11,811 bases of DNA from a virus: IMG/VR virus record IMGVR_UViG_3300027917_002728, one strand, 5' to 3'. Numbering within the stretch: position 1 is the stretch's first letter; each line of letters opens with the position of its first letter. The notes beneath the pieces are model-generated. The model saw nothing but the letters and a program-made list of their open reading frames with translations. It was not told the origin of the DNA and did not search any database. The translations under genes were made by a program, and so were the position numbers. Positions 15 through 7,188 of this stretch are shown one piece after another.

Positions 15-46
15 GTCCATGTTTATGGGTGTCCATGTTTATGGGT
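15..46. repeat. Perfect 16-bp tandem duplication (GTCCATGTTTATGGGT x2) at the 3' end of the sulfatase-like gene. The second copy contains that gene's stop codon.
   Basis: Read directly: 15..30 and 31..46 are identical. The unit contains the short inverted repeat CCAT..ATGG. Confidence 0.6.
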
Positions 47-809
47 TCAGAGAGTCCGCCTCGAACCCATGTTGACTGAGGTACTGGATAATCCGCTCGC
101 GGATATCTTCATCTGCCGGCAGTTGTTCAGAGTCACACGCGGAGGCGTAATCGGGAAAAGCGCCAGACTTCCACTGGTTCTCCTGCACATTGAGCTGGTA
201 CCATCCCTGGCATAAGACCGCCTGGACGGTTTTGATCTGGTAGAACGGTGCGGCGACTTTTTTGGGTGACCCGGCGATGATGCTATAGATCACGCGACTT
301 TCGGACAAATCATTGCCAATCAACGATATGCCATCCATCCAGTCCGGTTTGGGGAGACCCATGTAGTCCAGCAGTGTGGGCGAAATATCCACATTCGCCG
401 TGTTGTGATTGAGCTCCTGCGCAAATTCCCCATCAGGGAAGTACATGATAAGCGGGATCTGGACATTGGTCCTGTATCTCAGCCCATGGTCACTGTAGAT
501 GATCAATATCGTATTGTTGAGCATCCCTTTTTCTCCGAGATAATTGTAGATCTGTTCCACGTAACCATCAAAACTGGCGATCGCATCATCGTAAAAATCC
601 TCATCCCAGGGATTGTATTTCATATCGCCTTGCGAATAAACCTGCTCCTCGAACGAAAATTTCCCCTGGATGTTGTCAACCAGGTTCACTGCGGAGCAAT
701 CCTCGTCGGAGGAAGCAGCAGACCCGTTGTACCTTGGGTGGTATGACCAGAACCGCCGCAACTCGTCAATGAATCTCTGTTTAAGAGCTTCGGTCAGCCT
801 GAAGTACAT
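39..809 (-). CDS. Sulfatase / alkaline-phosphatase-superfamily protein, C-terminal half only (256 aa). The N-terminal catalytic half with the nucleophile motif is absent.
   Basis: Motifs typical of the sulfatase / phosphoethanolamine-transferase C-terminal region, recalled from memory: NTILIIYSDHG, QIPLIMYFPDG, VDISPTLLDYMGL. No CxPxR/SxPxR nucleophile region is present. ATG at 809 has a strong SD (AGGAGGG) 4 nt upstream. Confidence 0.6.
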   Translation of the reverse strand: MYFRLTEALKQRFIDELRRFWSYHPRYNGSAASSDEDCSAVNLVDNIQGKFSFEEQVYSQGDMKYNPWDEDFYDDAIASFDGYVEQIYNYLGEKGMLNNTILIIYSDHGLRYRTNVQIPLIMYFPDGEFAQELNHNTANVDISPTLLDYMGLPKPDWMDGISLIGNDLSESRVIYSIIAGSPKKVAAPFYQIKTVQAVLCQGWYQLNVQENQWKSGAFPDYASACDSEQLPADEDIRERIIQYLSQHGFEADSLNP

Positions 810-813
810 TTTC

Positions 814-841
814 CCTCCTACCGACTATCCTCGATAGGAGG
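814..841 (-). promoter_or_regulatory. Inverted repeat in the 5' leader of the sulfatase-like gene. The 5' arm CCUCCUA can pair with the SD UAGGAGG, giving a potential SD-sequestering hairpin.
   Basis: On the plus strand, cctccta (814..820) and taggagg (835..841) are exact reverse complements with a 14-nt spacer. An alternative inner hairpin CTATC/GATAG lies at 825..837. The SD is 4 nt from the ATG. Confidence 0.3.
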
Positions 842-937
842 ATTAGGGTCAGGTCCGAACTCACAACAGGTGGGTCGGTCAGCTGCAAAGAGGATGGTCA
901 GAGACACTGCAACCAAGACCAGGACCCACCGTTTCAC

Positions 938-1138
938 CTAGCTCTCCAACACCCCTGTGATGACCGTAGTCGTCTCCGGGCCGGGGATCAACTGGCTGAC
1001 ACCCCCCTCTGGGTCCAAGATACGTTCGACAGGTCTTTCCTGGGAAATGTGCATTCTGTCGAACTGGAACACCACAGGATCCAGCTCGAATCCGTCCGGG
1101 TGAGGCTCCAGATATTCAATAGTGACCTTGACCTTCAT
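938..1138 (-). CDS. Hypothetical small protein (66 aa; MKVKVTIEYLEPHPDGFELDPVVFQFDRM...), translationally coupled (ATGA) to the upstream gene.
   Basis: ATG 1138..1136 overlaps the stop of the 95-aa gene as ATGA (plus strand tcat at 1135..1138). A GAGGA/GGAGGG SD-like sequence lies upstream. The longer track ORF (938..1210) lacks this coupling. Confidence 0.4.
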   Translation of the reverse strand: MKVKVTIEYLEPHPDGFELDPVVFQFDRMHISQERPVERILDPEGGVSQLIPGPETTTVITGVLES

Positions 1139-1422
1139 TCCTCTTGATCCCTCCGAAACACCACATTTTCGAGGAGATGGGACCCGTCTTTGAAGGCCCC
1201 GACTTTCCACGACTCGAACCTCATGCCTTTCTCATCCCCCACCTTGAGATCCCAAGAGGTTGTGTCAACAGTCCTCACGGGGCCATCGGGGAGTGGAAGA
1301 CGGGAGCCGTCAAGAATAACTCGACTAGCCTTGATCTCAAAGCGTCCTGGATACGACTGTATCCCACATACATCTGCTACCCCGATCACCACACCATCCA
1401 AACGGATTGCTTCTCCCCTCAT
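1135..1422 (-). CDS. Hypothetical 95-aa protein, ATGA-coupled to the stop of the actin-like gene.
   Basis: Plus strand tcat at 1419..1422 gives an ATGA overlap with the stop of the actin-like CDS. CAGGAG/GAGGA SD upstream. No recognisable family. Confidence 0.4.
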   Translation of the reverse strand: MRGEAIRLDGVVIGVADVCGIQSYPGRFEIKASRVILDGSRLPLPDGPVRTVDTTSWDLKVGDEKGMRFESWKVGAFKDGSHLLENVVFRRDQEE

Positions 1423-3518
1423 TCCTCGTACTCCTGCACGGCTTGCACCAGCATCCCGTAGGCCACCGCGTTCAGCGGCTCCCCTGCTTGCCGGATCTCA
1501 GACACCTCGATGGGGAACCGCTTCTTGGCAAAGACTTTCTCGAACAGGCCCATGAAGCCACCAGCCAGACTGGTCCCCCCAGAGACGACTAAGGGGATGG
1601 GCTTAGGCAATGCAAACTGGCCCTGGATGGCCTTGAACCGCTTGGCCACCTCATCTAGAACATAGTCGATCAGGGCCCGGTAATAGAGAACAACAGCTTC
1701 TTGCTCGCGATCCTCGGGTTTGGCCAGATCGATGCCCTGCTCCTTGATCGCGCAGATCCGTGCCTGGGTAGACCCGACCGACATGGCGGCACCTTTGTCG
1801 ATCCAGTCGCCTGAATTGTGTACTACCATCCCAACGGATGCGAAGGATCGGTGTGAAGAGTCTACCACGAGGTCATAGACATCACCTTTGTACGGGACTT
1901 CCTCCACCCCGCCAACGCGGAACAAACCAAAATCGGGAAGGCCCCCCAACATCTGCTCCACACAATTACCCTCCACGGAGAATAGGGTTTCCAACATGGC
2001 CTTGTGAACGTGCCCGCCAACCCGAACCGTGTACGAATCCTTGGTCCCCACGATCAGTACGCCATTAGGGTTAACCCCTCCTGTCCTCGGGGGCCTTTTC
2101 AAGATGGTGTGATGCACCCCCAGCCGAACCAGCAAATGGTGCGCCAACACCACAACAGGCAGCGACGTGTTATACAAAGCATACTGCTTGCGCCCTTCAT
2201 ATCCGTCACTGTCCAGCAACCCCTCCAAAATCCCCACGGCCATCGTGTTGCTGATTTTGTCCAGACCCAAAGGGAATACTTTGGTGCCCTCTGAGTCGTA
2301 AAAACGCTCCCGCATGTGCTGAGCCACCGATGTCATGTGGAGCTTCACACGTGTCACGTTCTCAGCAGGGTCGTCCACCACTTGAGGGGTTCGACCGAAC
2401 AGGGTGGTCAGGACAGAGCAATACTTGTCCACCAACTGACCGTCTTTGCGGTTGAAAGCCAACTGAACAAAACGGGGGTCTTCCGCATGAGGGCCACAAG
2501 AACCGTCCCCCAAGAACACCCCGAAGAAACGTCCCAGATTTCGGGCCCCAGCCACCGTGATGTTCTTCCCGTTTGCACGACCGAAATAGTAAGAGGAATT
2601 TGAACTCCTAGCAGGCTTGACTACGGGAGTTCCTACTACGTCCCCCTTCTGAAGGTCGGCAGCTTCTTTCCAAGACCAACTCAGACCCTGTTTGACAAGA
2701 ACACGATGATCTGAAGTCACCCGCTGAGGGAAAGCAGGCAGGCCCTCAAGAGAGACTTTGACCAGTGAGTTTCGGGGGCCATTGTTTACCACCTCGGCTA
2801 CGGAGACCAAGTCCCCGTGTGCTCCGATCACCTTATCCCCGGCTTTGATCTCCCGCACCGTACGTGGGCCTTGATCAGTACACACAAGGAAATCATCTGC
2901 CAGACAACGGGCCACACTGAAGCTCAAGCCCTCGATGGTGTTGATGGCAAGAGCTACGTTTGTCATTCCCGACCCAAAGCTCATCGACACCCCGGAAAAA
3001 TCCTCTTTGGCACACTCCGAGAAGATGATCGCCATGCCCTCATTTGAGGGGTAGGGGTCATAGCCGCACTCCTCCACGATGCGCTCGAACACTCCTCGGT
3101 GATAGATGACATCTCTGTCGGGCTGATCAATAGGCTGTGCCGGAACTGAAAAGTAGCACACCTCATTCTCCACCCTTGGCTCCCCCAGCACCTCCTTGAC
3201 TAGTAGCCCAAGGACATCGAGGGAGTCCGCTTCCTGGGGAGAGATGAGGCCCGCAGACAAGGGACGACGTGCTTCCCGGCCGAAAACATTTGCGATCTCC
3301 AGGGCAGCATCTCCCAAGACCAGAACTTCATCCTCTCTTTCCACGAAGCTCGTCTTTGCCAGCAAAAGACGCTTCCGGGCCGTGATCGGGAAATCCAGGA
3401 ACACGTCCCGCATTCGTTTGGTTTCCACTCCCTTGGAGGTCCTGCGAGCGGAGACCAGATTCATTGTTCCGATATCAAGCCCAACCCCTTTAGGGGCACT
3501 CGGTGTTCCCTTGGCCAT
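1419..3518 (-). CDS. Actin-fold (ASKHA) ATPase, MreB/ParM/Hsp70-like. The 699-aa precursor is interrupted by an intein. The mature extein would be about 335 aa.
   Basis: Phosphate-1 motif GVGLDIGTMNLVSA at the N-terminus. Phosphate-2-like SFGSGMTNVALAI. C-terminal adenosine/phosphate motif PLVVSGGTSLAGGFMGLFEKVF. Extein length is MreB-like. ATG at 3518 with AAGGA SD 5 nt upstream. Confidence 0.8.
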   Translation of the reverse strand: MAKGTPSAPKGVGLDIGTMNLVSARRTSKGVETKRMRDVFLDFPITARKRLLLAKTSFVEREDEVLVLGDAALEIANVFGREARRPLSAGLISPQEADSLDVLGLLVKEVLGEPRVENEVCYFSVPAQPIDQPDRDVIYHRGVFERIVEECGYDPYPSNEGMAIIFSECAKEDFSGVSMSFGSGMTNVALAINTIEGLSFSVARCLADDFLVCTDQGPRTVREIKAGDKVIGAHGDLVSVAEVVNNGPRNSLVKVSLEGLPAFPQRVTSDHRVLVKQGLSWSWKEAADLQKGDVVGTPVVKPARSSNSSYYFGRANGKNITVAGARNLGRFFGVFLGDGSCGPHAEDPRFVQLAFNRKDGQLVDKYCSVLTTLFGRTPQVVDDPAENVTRVKLHMTSVAQHMRERFYDSEGTKVFPLGLDKISNTMAVGILEGLLDSDGYEGRKQYALYNTSLPVVVLAHHLLVRLGVHHTILKRPPRTGGVNPNGVLIVGTKDSYTVRVGGHVHKAMLETLFSVEGNCVEQMLGGLPDFGLFRVGGVEEVPYKGDVYDLVVDSSHRSFASVGMVVHNSGDWIDKGAAMSVGSTQARICAIKEQGIDLAKPEDREQEAVVLYYRALIDYVLDEVAKRFKAIQGQFALPKPIPLVVSGGTSLAGGFMGLFEKVFAKKRFPIEVSEIRQAGEPLNAVAYGMLVQAVQEYEE
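1815..2906 (-). mobile_element. Intein (364 aa) with a LAGLIDADG homing-endonuclease domain, inserted in the actin-like ATPase after ...GLSFSVAR and before SGDWIDKG.
   Basis: N-terminal splice block CLADDFLVCTDQG...IKAGDKV (Cys1). Block B TSDHRVLV. Two LAGLIDADG motifs (GRFFGVFLGDGSC and VGILEGLLDSDGYEG). Block F VYDLVVDSSHRSF. Terminal VVHN followed by Ser +1. Codons checked on the sequence: tgt at 2906..2904, aat at 1817..1815, tca (Ser) at 1814..1812. Confidence 0.75.
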
Positions 3519-3519
3519 G

Positions 3520-4098
3520 TTAGTCCTTCTTTCTCTTTGACTTCCGTGTCTTCGAACGACCCTTCAGGGCTTTGGCAGCCTCGTCGATCCCACTGGAGTC
3601 GGACTCTTGAGACTTCACCATGACCCGGGCCTTGGAATCCTTGACAATTCCCTTGGGGACGAAGACAGGTTCTGGTGGGGCTGAAGCCACCTCCGCTACA
3701 GGCTGAGGAGAAACAGCTCTGGAAGACTGCAAAACAGGGCTCAGAGCCAACACCACCCTTTCGACGATCTCATCTGTGTCGATCTGAACTACTGGGGCCG
3801 GGACCGTAACAGAAACAGGTGGCATGCTCCCACCACCACCTCGGGTCGATCTCGGAAACACCCGTGCAGGCGGCTTACTAGGAGAGACTTTCAGGTTGGG
3901 CAACGGCTTGGCTGGTTTCTCCTGGTACCGCTCCACCTCGCGGACAAACACACCCCGGACCCGTCTGGCTCGTTTCAGGTCCTCCGACTCCCTCGCTTGT
4001 ACGGCTGGGATGTGTGCCACCTCCCCCTTGGACAACTCCAAGCCTAGGTCTTGCAGCCTCAAGAAGGTGCACAAACAAGTGATCTCAGCTTCCTTCAT
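3520..4098 (-). CDS. Hypothetical 192-aa protein with a structured N-terminal region, a Pro/Val/Ser-rich low-complexity linker, and a strongly basic C-terminal tail (KGRSKTRKSKRKKD).
   Basis: ATG at 4098 overlaps the upstream stop as ATGA (tcat at 4095..4098). Its TAA stop lies 1 nt before the actin-like ATG. No family recognised. The composition suggests a disordered linker with a nucleic-acid-binding or partner-binding tail. Confidence 0.5.
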   Translation of the reverse strand: MKEAEITCLCTFLRLQDLGLELSKGEVAHIPAVQARESEDLKRARRVRGVFVREVERYQEKPAKPLPNLKVSPSKPPARVFPRSTRGGGGSMPPVSVTVPAPVVQIDTDEIVERVVLALSPVLQSSRAVSPQPVAEVASAPPEPVFVPKGIVKDSKARVMVKSQESDSSGIDEAAKALKGRSKTRKSKRKKD

Positions 4099-4742
4099 TT
4101 GGTTGGGTCTCCCTGAGAGAGCTGCTCCAGGACCTCTTCCATCAGGATGTCTGCACAGGCTTGCCTGCCTTTTTTGATCGCTCTCTGCATGAAAGTGAAC
4201 TTCGCGATACCTGGGTGAATCCAGGCATCCTGGGTCTTCAATGGAGCCGTTCGGAAGATCACTGTACCCGACTTGGTCTTGATTGGGACAACAAGAGGCA
4301 GCCTTCTTCCCAACTCAATGGCCCCGCCTCTTTTCCTGGCCCCCCGGGAGCGTTTCCTCCTTCTCATCCCCAAGCGTTTCTCTGCCGGAGTTAGATGGAA
4401 GTTACCGTCGTAGGTGCTCTTGTACTCCTGGCTGAGCCAGGGCATCCTACGCATGGGGATATCCCCCGTCGTCAGCTCGCGGAGGCCATAGAAAGAGGAC
4501 GTGATCTCAAGGGTGCTTTTCCCTCGGACATGGTAAGAGAAAGAATCCCAAAGAGAGGGCCCCTTCATTGGGTCCTTCCCGGACCAACCCCGCTTGGCGA
4601 AGTCCTTTTTTGCCTCTTTGACGATTATGGAAACAAGGCACTCCCCGAGCTTCAGCAAGGTCTCGTGGGACACCACTATGCCTTGGGCCAGCTCCGACCA
4701 GGGCCTGCCATAGACCTTTCTGACCCTGACCTTGGCCTTCAC
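4095..4742 (-). CDS. Hypothetical 215-aa basic protein with an internal RRRKRSRGARKRGG stretch.
   Basis: GTG start at 4742 lies immediately after the TGA of the HicB-like gene and has a GGAGG SD 5 nt upstream. No family recognised. Confidence 0.5.
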   Translation of the reverse strand: MKAKVRVRKVYGRPWSELAQGIVVSHETLLKLGECLVSIIVKEAKKDFAKRGWSGKDPMKGPSLWDSFSYHVRGKSTLEITSSFYGLRELTTGDIPMRRMPWLSQEYKSTYDGNFHLTPAEKRLGMRRRKRSRGARKRGGAIELGRRLPLVVPIKTKSGTVIFRTAPLKTQDAWIHPGIAKFTFMQRAIKKGRQACADILMEEVLEQLSQGDPTK

Positions 4743-5039
4743 TCAGGCCTCCGTGGTGAAATGCGTCCCGTCGCTGAACAGAAGGTAAGGACCATCCACC
4801 GTAAGCGTCAGGGTCTCGTTCTCTGAGGTCTCTCCCAGATCAGGAACTGGAAGGTGGTCGAAAGGATCCCCTTCTAGGCCCATCTCCCGGTGTACAACCA
4901 CATGCCCAGCTAGGAGATGCTTGAGGTTGTATGCCAGGTCCTCCGGGTTATCGGCTTGTGCAACCAGGTCGATCTCTACAGGGCAGGCCAGCCATTTTCC
5001 TTCCTCCTGCCACCGCACAATGTGGAACTCCCAGCTCAT
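4743..5039 (-). CDS. HicB-like (UPF0150 / RNase H-like fold) small protein, 98 aa from ATG 5039. An alternative GTG start at 5078 gives 111 aa.
   Basis: N-terminus MSWEFHIVRWQEEGKWLACPVEIDLVAQADNPEDLAYNLKHLL matches the HicB-family pattern as I recall it (YxxxxEEDGxYxAxxPELPGCxSxGxTxEEALxNxxEAI). ATG 5039 lies 1 nt after the TAG of the upstream gene. GTG 5078 has an AAGGA SD. No HicA-like partner gene is visible. Confidence 0.4.
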   Translation of the reverse strand: MSWEFHIVRWQEEGKWLACPVEIDLVAQADNPEDLAYNLKHLLAGHVVVHREMGLEGDPFDHLPVPDLGETSENETLTLTVDGPYLLFSDGTHFTTEA

Positions 5040-5040
5040 A

Positions 5041-6453
5041 CTACCACGTGATGTTCTCCCAGACGGCAGTTCGACCACGTTGGTCCTTGTCGTCTGGTGT
5101 GTTGTCCTTCTCCGTGATCATGGGAGCCACCTCCCTGGGTCCTTCGGGGTAAGGAGGATCCCCAGTCCATGGGTGGATGGTGTCCGGGAAATCTCCATCG
5201 ATAGGCATGGAGGGGGCTTGTACGAAAGCGTATCTGGTCTCGGGGTACGTGTAATCCACCACCCCGTCAATGGGAACCTTGTACCGGATGTCCCCTTGAT
5301 CGAGATAGGCGATATTGAAGTGCTGCTGAAGCAGGTTACCTCTGTTCGAGGGCCTTCTGACAGGGCCCACAGAGTAACGCTCGTTGGTTTGCTTTACCAG
5401 GAAGTCCCGCTGGGTCACGGTAGGTGAAGGACCCATGAACACTTCATAGGAGTGCTCCATCTTGCGGCCGGTCACCTTCTGGCTTATCCGTCGTTCGGCA
5501 TCGTCTGGAGCAACGATGATGTCGAAGGGGCCCTCGTAGCCACCGCAGAAACCGGTCCCGAAGCAGGTGCAACACCTGGCCGAAGGCTGCTTGCTGAACT
5601 CCCGTGTCTTGCTCTCTATCATGCACGGGCAGGGGACTCCTGACTGACGACGGATGAAAAGCTTCACCCGCTCCCCGCCTTGTTGGAGGATCCAATGGTT
5701 CCGACGGATGGCCTCCCGCCAGATGTAGTCCAGGCGCTCTACTTCAATGACTGAGTGGGGCTGACAGTAGGATAGGTCCGTCTCTCGGAGTCCGCTGGGT
5801 GTGTCAGAGTCCAACACCACCGTCGTCAGCCGATACCATATTTTGGCGTCTAGCCCGGACCGGACACGATTACCCTCCCCCCTGTAGCTCACCTGGACCA
5901 CAGAGGACTCGGTAGGGAGGACAGCGCTCTCACACTTCTCGGTGCCCACATTGATGGTGGACTGGTTTATGAGGGTGATCTCACCAGTCCTCCCAAACAC
6001 CGACTCTACAGGCACCTCAACCCCATCGATGGTGACTGTGACATCGGAAGGGGAATTGGCATAGGTCACTGAATCGAAAGGTGCCCCGTCAATGGCCTTT
6101 ACAATCGGGTTCTGGGTCCGAAACACCCAACGACGATCGTTGGGGGCATCGCCTTTCGAGATCCAAGAAGTGGCCCAGTCAATGGTTTCCCCTGACACCG
6201 CCAGGCTGGTTGTCTGGTCCCGGTAGAACCCGCCCCCCACTGGGATTTCATTGATGCGGCTGAAGGGACCCCGGTCGGATACATCTGATCTCCAGATGTT
6301 GACCCCCACCACCGTGAAACTTGTGTTCCTGGCCAGCAGAGAGGGATCATCCCATCTGAGGTCGAGAACCCCTATCGTGAACGGACTCAGCACCTCCACG
6401 TTCTGCGGAGGTGCTGGTTGGTCAGCAGGACCAGCTGCCCACCCGGTCGTCAT
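5041..6453 (-). CDS. Hypothetical 470-aa protein with an Ig/FN3-like N-terminus and a central Cys cluster (CPCMIESKTREFSKQPSARCCTCFGTGFCGG), probably metal-binding. It may be a structural or adhesion-type protein.
   Basis: N-terminus PPQNVEVLSPFTIGVLDLRWDDPS is FN3-like. Seven Cys fall within about 30 residues. ATG 6453 directly follows the TAG of the upstream gene (plus strand catcta at 6451..6456). Confidence 0.55.
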   Translation of the reverse strand: MTTGWAAGPADQPAPPQNVEVLSPFTIGVLDLRWDDPSLLARNTSFTVVGVNIWRSDVSDRGPFSRINEIPVGGGFYRDQTTSLAVSGETIDWATSWISKGDAPNDRRWVFRTQNPIVKAIDGAPFDSVTYANSPSDVTVTIDGVEVPVESVFGRTGEITLINQSTINVGTEKCESAVLPTESSVVQVSYRGEGNRVRSGLDAKIWYRLTTVVLDSDTPSGLRETDLSYCQPHSVIEVERLDYIWREAIRRNHWILQQGGERVKLFIRRQSGVPCPCMIESKTREFSKQPSARCCTCFGTGFCGGYEGPFDIIVAPDDAERRISQKVTGRKMEHSYEVFMGPSPTVTQRDFLVKQTNERYSVGPVRRPSNRGNLLQQHFNIAYLDQGDIRYKVPIDGVVDYTYPETRYAFVQAPSMPIDGDFPDTIHPWTGDPPYPEGPREVAPMITEKDNTPDDKDQRGRTAVWENITW

Positions 6454-6828
6454 CTAGCCTGTGCCCCCCTCCATTACCCCCGTGATGAACATCTTCCCCT
6501 CAGGGGTGATGGACCATTGCTGGTTTTCATCTGGGTCAATCCCGAAGCGCCGAGCGGCATTCTCCATGACCTTCTGGGCCTTCTCGTCGACATCGCTCAG
6601 CATTCCCATGAGACGTGCCTTGCGCACCTCCAACTGACCCACCTCAAGTACGATCCTTTGAGACGATTTCCGAAGTGAGTCCAAGAGCTGCATCTCCGAG
6701 GGTTCCAGAACACCAATTGGTTCCGGTGTTTGGGCCTTGGTCGTTGACTCTTCCTGGGGCTCGGTCTCAACGGTTTCTGGTGTGGTACTCATTAGTCTCC
6801 CTTGTGGAAAGTTAGGGTAGCTCCACAC
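6454..6828 (-). CDS. Hypothetical acidic small protein. It is 124 aa from the GTG start at 6828, or 113 aa from the internal ATG at 6792.
   Basis: GTG at 6828 overlaps the upstream TAG by 1 nt. ATG 6792 has a GGGAGA SD 4 nt upstream. No family recognised. Confidence 0.45.
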   Translation of the reverse strand: MWSYPNFPQGRLMSTTPETVETEPQEESTTKAQTPEPIGVLEPSEMQLLDSLRKSSQRIVLEVGQLEVRKARLMGMLSDVDEKAQKVMENAARRFGIDPDENQQWSITPEGKMFITGVMEGGTG

Positions 6829-7067
6829 TACCCCACATCCTCCTCCACCTCAGACTCCTGCTGCAAAAGTTCTCCTCGTTGGCGCAGCTTCACCAAGAAG
6901 TTAATCAGGTGGGTACCCACCTTCTTCCTCAAGGTCAGTCGCGTTGGCGGAGAGATCATCTTCGGCAGCTTGGTGAAGGACCAGAAAACGGTACCATCGT
7001 CTGTGGTGTACTCGTACACCCGCTTACCAAACTGAGACCCCTCTTTCTTCTGTGGGCTTTGGCTCAC
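6828..7067 (-). CDS. Hypothetical 79-aa protein (MSQSPQKKEGSQFGKRVYEYTTDDGTVFWSF...). It is the first gene of the minus-strand operon.
   Basis: GTG start at 7067 has a strong SD (GAGGAGGG) 6 nt upstream, verified on the sequence. No family recognised. Confidence 0.4.
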   Translation of the reverse strand: MSQSPQKKEGSQFGKRVYEYTTDDGTVFWSFTKLPKMISPPTRLTLRKKVGTHLINFLVKLRQRGELLQQESEVEEDVG

Positions 7068-7188
7068 TTCGGGCCCTCCTCTCTACTCACGTCAGCCTAT
7101 AGGACAAGTAGGGGGATCGTTTTCTGAAGAACTGGGGTATAGAAGGCACAGTAACCAAACCGTCCCCAGAAGGGGGCTGGAGACAACA
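7068..7188. promoter_or_regulatory. Divergent intergenic promoter region between the minus-strand operon and the MVP gene.
   Basis: 121 bp between the GTG at 7067 and the ATG at 7189. Two TATAG motifs lie in opposite orientation (cctatagg 7095..7102, ggtatagaa 7136..7144). SD GGAG at 7179..7182 sits 6 nt before the MVP ATG. Exact -35/-10 or TATA/BRE assignment cannot be made by eye. Confidence 0.3.

Follow-up and report, generated by a model that had tools for sequence, protein, structure and literature searches.

To our knowledge, the cytoskeletons described from phages so far are mainly tubulins (PhuZ and TubZ), joined by a single prophage actin, AlpC. The PhuZ spindle of the nucleus-forming jumbo phages (Chimalliviridae) is a polymer that organises the infected cell and delivers capsids, and the original survey of huge phages reportedly mentioned tubulin homologs alone. 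Among actin-like systems, the C-terminus of ParR docks on ParM in ParMRC, and MamK is tied to its cargo by MamJ, an acidic, repetitive and disordered adaptor. AlpC, from prophage CGP3 of Corynebacterium glutamicum, is an actin-like ATPase co-transcribed with an adaptor gene, alpA, that lies directly upstream; AlpA recognises alpS, a set of 24 repeats in the promoter of its gene, and AlpAC acts early and is needed for replication (PMC4446434). Volactin from Haloferax volcanii, the founding member of the family to which our subject belongs, forms dynamic filaments in vivo with ParM-like instability (PMC10869688). Here we analyse an 11,811-nucleotide stretch of viral DNA (IMG/VR record IMGVR_UViG_3300027917_002728; "the window" denotes this whole stretch), whose minus strand encodes an intein-containing actin-fold ATPase of the Volactin family, directly preceded by the gene of a small, largely disordered protein, p192. 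Phage and prophage actins such as AlpC (PMC4446434) and a Pfam model for the Volactin family are already known; in open-access PMC and bioRxiv we found no publication on volactin-family actins in huge phages, on the p192 partner, or on the gene cassette that holds them. A sequence-only reading of the window had proposed that the ATPase belongs to a positioning or segregation module; we find it instead in a block of virion genes beside a tail sheath gene, not among replication or partition genes.

The 699-amino-acid (aa) product of the ATPase open reading frame (ORF) matches the Pfam family Volactin (PF25216) in two stretches (E=4e-68), and the full-length match is regained once an intein is removed: residues 12-329 of the 335-aa spliced extein (N-extein 2907-3518, C-extein 1422-1814, stop codon 1419-1421) align to positions 3-321 of the 321-position profile (E=8.6e-75, 252.6 bits against a gathering cut-off of 35). 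No other Pfam family matches the extein at E<=1, including MreB_Mbl, ParM, Actin and FtsA, which excludes membership of these four; ParM, MreB or Alp membership of the ATPase was ruled out in the same way, Volactin being the only Pfam match. The earlier reading of this gene as an actin-fold ATPase with an intein therefore stands, and its family was founded on a protein that forms dynamic filaments. Nor is it a bona fide MreB beside mreCD, as it has no MreB_Mbl match and its neighbours are phage genes.

A search of the protein collection gave 2171 homologs of the extein, of which the best 120 are intein-free, about 336 aa long and 67-83% identical to it, many of them on contigs of 100-400 kb. 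A family search over 1.84 billion cluster representatives returned 1056 clusters at E<=1e-3. We modelled the 83%-identical homolog P0001 as a proxy for the extein with AlphaFold2 (AF2), with a predicted local distance difference test score (pLDDT) of 91.3 and a predicted template-modelling score (pTM) of 0.88. The top Foldseek matches of this model in the PDB are polymerising actins, namely MamK (template-modelling score, TM, 0.73-0.75), MreB, BeeR and eukaryotic actin, at probability 1.00, with FtsA and actin-related proteins next; these structural matches are at 12-19% identity, and the 50 best contain neither ParM nor Hsp70 nor sugar kinases. A sequence-profile search of PDB chains found MamK (E=3.5e-4) and FtsA (E=9e-4) and no further matches, so the family has no close solved structure.

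The insert is a class-1 intein with a LAGLIDADG homing-endonuclease domain. It is 364 aa long (residues 205-568; window 1815-2906, minus strand) and runs from Cys1 in 'CLADDF' (C205) to 'VVHN', with a Ser nucleophile at +1, a TxxH block reading 'TSDH', and two LAGLIDADG-type motifs, 'FLGDGS' and 'LLDSDG'. In Pfam it matches LAGLIDADG_3 (E=1.4e-5, above the cut-off), Hint_2, and Intein_splicing (E=1.3e-8), the last scoring just under its cut-off (35.2 vs 35.8 bits). The insertion point lies between 'SVAR' and '(G->S)GDWID' of the ATPase core, where intein-free homologs read 'SVARGGDWID'. One other locus (L008) carries an intein at the same site, 55% identical to that of the window, and other family members (among P0121-P0270) have inteins at profile positions ~180, 183 and 186, besides ~205; the stretch between the phosphate-2 and GGD motifs is an intein hot-spot with at least four insertion sites.

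We compared the locus with 91 related phage loci, oriented on the ATPase and searched with the proteins of the window; all counts of loci below refer to this set. The ATPase is the best-conserved gene, with a median identity of 66% as against 53% for p470, 39% for p215 and 32% for p192 (the genes around it, described below), and its identity exceeds those of both p470 and p215 in each of the 68 loci that carry all three. Within the phage clade the phosphate-1 motif 'GLDIGTMN' and the adenosine motif 'SGGTS' are invariant, and the Glu of 'SNEAMA' is conserved.

The DNA around the ATPase comes from the genome of a huge (jumbo or mega) bacteriophage. Among GenBank phages, tblastn found the ATPase in the uncultured huge phages LR745208.1 (485 kb, 66% identity) and LR756511.1 (595 kb, 30%), and a profile scan of IMG/VR found 269 viral contigs, up to 485 kb long, with a relative of the ATPase. 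The neighbouring genes are typical of phages (dCMP deaminase, DUF7768, DUF6939). A scan of one genome per prokaryotic species, made with exact peptide patterns and therefore of limited sensitivity, found only a tandem pair of Volactin-family paralogs in an Omnitrophota metagenome-assembled genome (MAG; JADGCU010000029.1, L001:6505-7476 and 8001-8960), 34-35% identical to the extein. These paralogs adjoin a response-regulator-like gene, and the second reads as a 501-aa ORF that is extended by about 170 aa at its N-terminus; they are a cellular counterpart of the Volactin family beyond archaea.

The sequence-only reading had drawn attention to a 192-aa protein with a Pro-rich linker and a basic tail directly before the ATPase. 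This protein, p192, is encoded at 3520-4098, its stop codon separated from the ATPase ATG by a 1-nt gap, and proved to be an essentially invariant companion. A hidden Markov model (HMM) of the p192 family matches 89 of the 91 loci; in the two misses the ATPase stands at a contig edge and the upstream sequence is absent, so that p192 precedes the ATPase in 89 of the 89 loci where the upstream region is present. In about 80 loci it ends less than 100 nt before the ATPase.

The architecture of p192 is constant in three family alignments (A1, A3 and A7, with 9, 47 and 25 members): an N-domain of about 60 residues, a Pro-rich linker, a C-terminal block, and a Lys/Arg tail. Total length ranges from 181 to 294 aa, the linker varying in both length and sequence (median Pro content 11%), while the C-terminal block keeps the pattern 'PxF(I/V)PxxIV ... 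(V/L)D(E/D)AAxAL(K/R)' and the last 20 residues hold a median of 7 Lys and Arg. In the window the N-domain comprises residues 1-58 (3925-4098), the disordered linker (3679-3924) has 14 Pro in 77 residues, and the C-terminal motif and basic tail (3523-3678) end in ...KALKGRSKTRKSKRKKD. A single-sequence homolog search with p192 recovered the query alone; an AF2 model built on an alignment with 24 database homologs gave residues 1-58 a pLDDT of about 95, with four beta-strands, two short helices and a fifth strand, and left the remainder disordered. Neither the model nor Foldseek showed any resemblance of the N-domain to ribbon-helix-helix or helix-turn-helix folds.

The C-terminal motif of p192 also occurs upstream of a 47%-identical ATPase in L102 (E=1.4e-5). 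We looked further afield for relatives of the partner and rejected two sets of candidates: N-terminal extensions present in 30 of 150 family representatives, taken as fused p192-like partners, showed no significant similarity, and miniature p192-like ORFs upstream of very distant members (L104, the Omnitrophota locus L001, L010 and L103) matched at a non-significant E=0.16-0.26. Two of the latter, L104:433-678 and L001:6185-6487, share the pattern 'HLA(D/E)IPTKxIK...(D/E)xxAxxL', which resembles the C-terminal motif of p192 (E=0.16-0.26) and might be a family-wide actin-binding peptide.

The minus strand of the window is a gene run without interruption from p79 through p66, followed by the start of p391; a vault-like gene lies on the opposite strand:

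6828-7067, minus strand: p79, an ORF upstream in the gene run.
6454-6828, minus strand: p124, a further ORF upstream in the gene run.
5041-6453, minus strand: p470, a conserved member of the cassette, with a Cys-rich motif CxC...CxxC.
4743-5078, minus strand: p111, a 111-aa ORF between p470 and p215.
4095-4742, minus strand: p215, 215 aa, a conserved member of the cassette.
3520-4098, minus strand: p192, 192 aa, the conserved partner of the ATPase.
1419-3518, minus strand: the ATPase precursor, a 699-aa ORF with Volactin (PF25216) and the intein.
1135-1422, minus strand: p95, 95 aa, an accessory gene in the slot after the ATPase.
938-1138, minus strand: p66, 66 aa, likewise an accessory gene in the slot after the ATPase.
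641-809, minus strand: the 5' end of p391, its first 56 codons, truncated by a foreign join at 640/641.
7189-9867, plus strand: the vault-like gene, 892 aa, with MVP_shoulder (E=2e-23) and Vault_3 repeats.

Start and stop codons overlap as ATGA at 4098-4095 (p215 to p192), 1422-1419 (ATPase to p95) and 1138-1135 (p95 to p66), and the sequence reads Shine-Dalgarno-like GAGGA/AAGGA motifs upstream of the starts of the ATPase, p95 and p66. The ATGA coupling of the ATPase to the 95-aa and 66-aa genes downstream, as described in the sequence-only reading, is exact at both junctions.

Four of these genes, p470, p215, p192 and the ATPase, form a cassette that is inherited together across the phage lineage. 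Beside p192, which was scored by its family HMM, matches were found for p215 in 82 of the 91 loci, p391 in 75, the tail sheath in 73, p470 in 71 and a Zn-ribbon protein in 66; the p215 matches, found by tblastn, lie directly upstream of p192 without exception. On a 297-kb contig (IMGVR_UViG_3300025141_000016) the whole cassette is present twice, as L059 and L061, with no nucleotide similarity between the copies and with ATPases that are 82% identical; this suggests that the four genes are a unit, although the contig may be a chimeric assembly and hold no true duplication. The cassette usually adjoins the p391 gene, the Zn-ribbon gene and a giant tail-sheath gene, whose product of about 1800 aa matches the PHROG category 'tail sheath' over its C-terminal 350 residues (E=2e-26). 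By its profile matches p470 is possibly a virion protein, and 14 of 35 members of its family match the unannotated PHROG 2806.

The downstream end of the run is cut short in the window. Positions 641-11811 match the 58.5-kb ENA contig k141_3179728 at 99.95% identity and positions 1-640 are unrelated to it; the 640/641 junction is most likely an assembly chimera. The matching contig continues into an intact 407-aa p391-family protein, then a Zn_ribbon_8 protein, and then an 1850-aa sheath-like protein, and the 56 N-terminal residues of p391 left in the window share 36-61% identity with p391-family N-termini from 75 loci. We rejected a 256-aa 'sulfatase' ORF (39-809, minus strand) as part of the module: since 1-640 is foreign to the matching contig, this ORF is a chimera in which the C-terminal part of a sulfatase, encoded by the foreign sequence, has been joined in frame to the first 56 codons of p391. 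Positions 15-46 hold a 16-nt sequence duplicated perfectly in tandem (GTCCATGTTTATGGGT x2), and at 818-937 on the minus strand, between p66 and p391, there is a possible 39-aa ORF with a GTG start (VKRWVLVLVAVSLTILFAADRPTCC...), whose hydrophobic N-terminus resembles a signal or transmembrane segment; this ORF is found in this phage alone and is uncalled in the matching ENA contig. The ORF p111 overlaps the end of p470 by 38 nt and is called as a gene in that contig; it has no counterpart in the related loci and is a strain-specific insertion. Towards the far end of the window, the dCMP/cytidine deaminase (10767-11456, minus strand) has a domain that spans residues 10-182 against a Pfam profile of 102 positions, which implies a large insertion within the deaminase fold.

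The two small genes after the ATPase are accessory and strain-specific; they occupy a hypervariable insertion slot and do not belong to the core of the system. The ATPase and p391 are separated by anything from 6 nt to 8.4 kb (median 589 nt), the genes that fill this interval are unrelated between phages, with each family in at most 9 loci, and several relatives have no gene there at all (gaps of 6-24 nt). Homologs of p66 occur in 7 loci, each time directly after the ATPase, and p95 has a homolog in one (L005), as the C-terminal half of a p66::p95 fusion; the order of the two is reversed there and both are fused in one 175-aa ORF, from which we take them to work together as an optional unit, p66 probably functioning with p95. 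Neither has a Pfam or PHROG match. For p66 we set aside a 90-aa reading from a GTG start, as the homologs begin at the Met of ATG 1138, which gives the 66-aa reading. In L013 (11057-11395) and L081 (10027-10362) the slot is filled by a GroES/Cpn10 gene (Pfam E=2e-7; PHROG co-chaperonin); p95 was considered as GroES-like and rejected, having no Pfam or PHROG match and no BLAST clustering with the Cpn10 proteins of these two loci. The suggestion that the two small ATGA-coupled proteins serve as adaptors of the ATPase does not fit genes of such sporadic occurrence in so variable a slot.

The partition analogy fared no better. The search for centromere-like repeats that accompanied it (repeat search and TRF) found no such arrays in the window or in 20.6 kb of the matching contig, and promoter and terminator scans gave hits at chance level only; p192 overlaps p215 by ATGA, so there is no intergenic space upstream of it. 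Against a likeness to ParMRC or Alp7AR, the ATPase has no ParM match in Pfam, there are no repeats and no ribbon-helix-helix adaptor, and the partner lies upstream.

The vault-like protein, considered here as a candidate for the other product of the locus that, in the sequence-only reading, the module might move, is a separate matter. It has a long C-terminal coiled coil, and its homologs (36-66% identity) are found in the huge phages LR756500.1 (462 kb) and LR756501.1/LR756503.1 (735 kb) and in six IMG/VR contigs, one of 318 kb. The gene occurs in none of the 91 actin loci, and in GenBank the huge phages with the vault-like gene lack the ATPase and those with the ATPase lack the vault-like gene; we therefore ruled out a link between the two, which do not co-occur in the complete huge-phage genomes that were searched. 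A vault-shell-like protein that recurs in huge phages seems to merit separate study.

We lean towards a phage actin filament with a dedicated disordered adaptor, p192, probably acting late with the virion genes. After splicing, the 335-aa extein would bind nucleotide and polymerise into actin-like filaments in the infected cell, and p192 would be its dedicated adaptor or regulator: the C-terminal peptide or helix of p192 would dock on the filament, by analogy with ParR-type tails and with MamJ and MamK; the Lys/Arg tail would bind a polyanion, be it DNA, RNA or an anionic membrane; and the folded N-domain would hold cargo across the flexible Pro-rich linker. The virion genes run in the same direction as the cassette and are closely packed with it, so the filament would most likely act late, to arrange or move virion components or packaged DNA, as an actin counterpart of the PhuZ tubulin spindle. 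A more far-reaching version is put forward tentatively, as somewhat less likely than not: that a whole lineage of huge phages, represented by hundreds of metagenomic genomes of 200-500 kb, has its own actin cytoskeleton, a volactin-type filament with a natural phosphate-2 Asp->Ser exchange, which would be steered by p192, as a new kind of disordered adaptor, and by p215 and p470. Such a system would organise the assembly or transport of virions, as an actin-based counterpart of PhuZ of independent evolutionary origin.

Several observations weigh against a late-acting filament steered by p192. At the position of the phosphate-2 Asp the phage clade has Ser without exception ('LSFGSGMT'; 'MSFGSGMT' in the window, ~2970-2990, minus strand), where H. 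volcanii volactin has 'VDFGAGT' and MamK 'VDIGAGT', and where MreB, actin and ParM also have Asp; with this exchange hydrolysis and dynamics may differ, or the protein may be no classic cytomotive filament. On the side of the partner, the C-terminal helix of p192 (residues 171-187) is of low confidence in the AF2 model, and Foldseek found no significant fold for the N-domain in the PDB (best E=0.41). On the side of the virion genes, p215 and p391 have no annotation in PDB profiles, PHROGs or Pfam, member by member; the virion link of p470 is weak, with 4 of 35 members matching PHROG 1004 'virion structural protein' (best E=4e-4); and in one subclade (L052, L054, L056, L058, L059, L064 and L070) the cassette stands apart from p391 and the sheath. 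Polymerisation and contact between p192 and the ATPase are proposed from adjacency and co-conservation alone, and the late, virion-linked timing is a reading of gene position.

The closest rival is a system of the AlpA/AlpC type, whose filament would position phage DNA or a replication compartment, with p192 as a DNA adaptor that binds through its polybasic tail. The gene order is that of alpA-alpC in prophage CGP3, with the adaptor directly upstream of the actin gene (PMC4446434); the conserved tail, with its median of 7 Lys and Arg in the last 20 residues, would suit nucleic-acid binding; and huge phages do organise DNA by a cytoskeleton (PhuZ). We nevertheless regard it as unlikely: the window and ~20 kb of the matching contig hold no iterated repeats like alpS or parC, the ATGA overlap with p215 leaves no intergenic region upstream of p192, the N-domain of p192 is beta-rich and matches no DNA-binding fold, and the cassette lies among structural genes, not early or replication genes. 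A further rival is an assembly ATPase that forms no filaments, an ATP-driven chaperone or assembly factor for the very large tail and virion proteins encoded nearby, with p192 as co-factor: the ATPase adjoins the gene of a ~1800-aa tail sheath in most loci, a GroES-like gene (Cpn10, E=2e-7) comes right after it in L013 and L081, and it has Ser for the phosphate-2 Asp. Its 50 best fold matches nonetheless include neither Hsp70 nor sugar kinases, it has no substrate-binding domain and at 335 aa is the size of MreB or MamK, the founding member of its family is filamentous, and the GroES gene is found in 2 of the 91 loci only; this reading is distinctly improbable.

Still less weight falls to a takeover of the host, in which the phage actin would co-assemble or compete with host MreB, FtsA or a volactin homolog and so remodel cell shape or block division while the slow infection by a huge phage proceeds. 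Cellular homologs exist (the tandem copies of the Omnitrophota MAG, 34-35% identical), and volactin governs the cell shape of H. volcanii (PMC10869688), but the phage clade has its own invariant partner, the ORF upstream of the Omnitrophota copies resembles p192 at a non-significant E=0.16, and an identity of ~30-35% to cellular homologs is too low for obvious co-polymerisation. The original proposal, a module like ParMRC or Alp7AR with p95 and p66 as adaptors that possibly moves another product of the locus, such as a vault-like particle, draws on the tight ATGA coupling from the ATPase through p95 to p66, on the constant position of p66 homologs right after the ATPase, and on the p66::p95 fusion in L005. 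Set against these, p66 is present in 7 and p95 in 1 of the 91 loci, with a gap of just 6-24 nt between ATPase and p391 in some relatives, neither a ParM match in Pfam nor centromere-like repeats turned up, and the MVP-like gene is found in 0 of the 91 loci and is mutually exclusive with the ATPase in GenBank huge phages; we consider this proposal very improbable indeed.

Hundreds of huge-phage contigs, extreme conservation, an invariant partner and an unusual substitution in a catalytic motif make the ATPase of interest, and it is a useful marker gene for the phage clade. If it polymerises, it would be a second, independent case of prokaryotic viruses building a cytoskeleton, it would offer a natural phosphate-2 variant for the study of actin dynamics, and together with p192 it would be a compact actin/adaptor pair for synthetic positioning systems.

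The preferred reading, a phage actin filament with p192 as its adaptor, can be set beside several described systems. The ATPase resembles PhuZ in being a candidate cytoskeletal polymer of very large phages; PhuZ itself is of the tubulin/FtsZ fold, has no partner like p192 and belongs to a different phage lineage. In ParMRC and Alp7AR, too, an actin-fold ATPase goes with a small partner whose C-terminal tail is conserved, but here there is no ParM match in Pfam, the partner lies upstream and has an N-domain predicted to be beta-rich, there is no centromere array, and the locus is not on a plasmid. MamK (5ljv, 5jyg) is the closest solved structure (TM 0.73-0.75, profile E=3.5e-4), and its adaptor MamJ resembles the proposed disordered linker of p192; MamK is about 18% identical and keeps the phosphate-2 Asp, and the present locus has no magnetosome context. 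The arrangement of AlpA and AlpC recurs in p192 directly upstream of the ATPase (1-nt gap here; adjacent in ~80 of 89 loci), with the difference that repeats are absent, that no promoter region precedes p192, and that the surroundings are virion genes. Volactin (VolA, HVO_2015) shares with the ATPase the Pfam family, by a full-length match, as well as size, the MreB/MamK-like fold and the 'GGTS' adenosine motif. Volactin is a chromosomal cell-shape factor of an archaeon, with 'GVDFGAGT' at phosphate-2 and no partner of the p192 kind described, whereas the present gene belongs to a huge bacteriophage, has 'LSFGSGMT' at phosphate-2 and a more canonical phosphate-1 motif, 'GLDIGTMN', and comes with an intein and a dedicated partner of its own.

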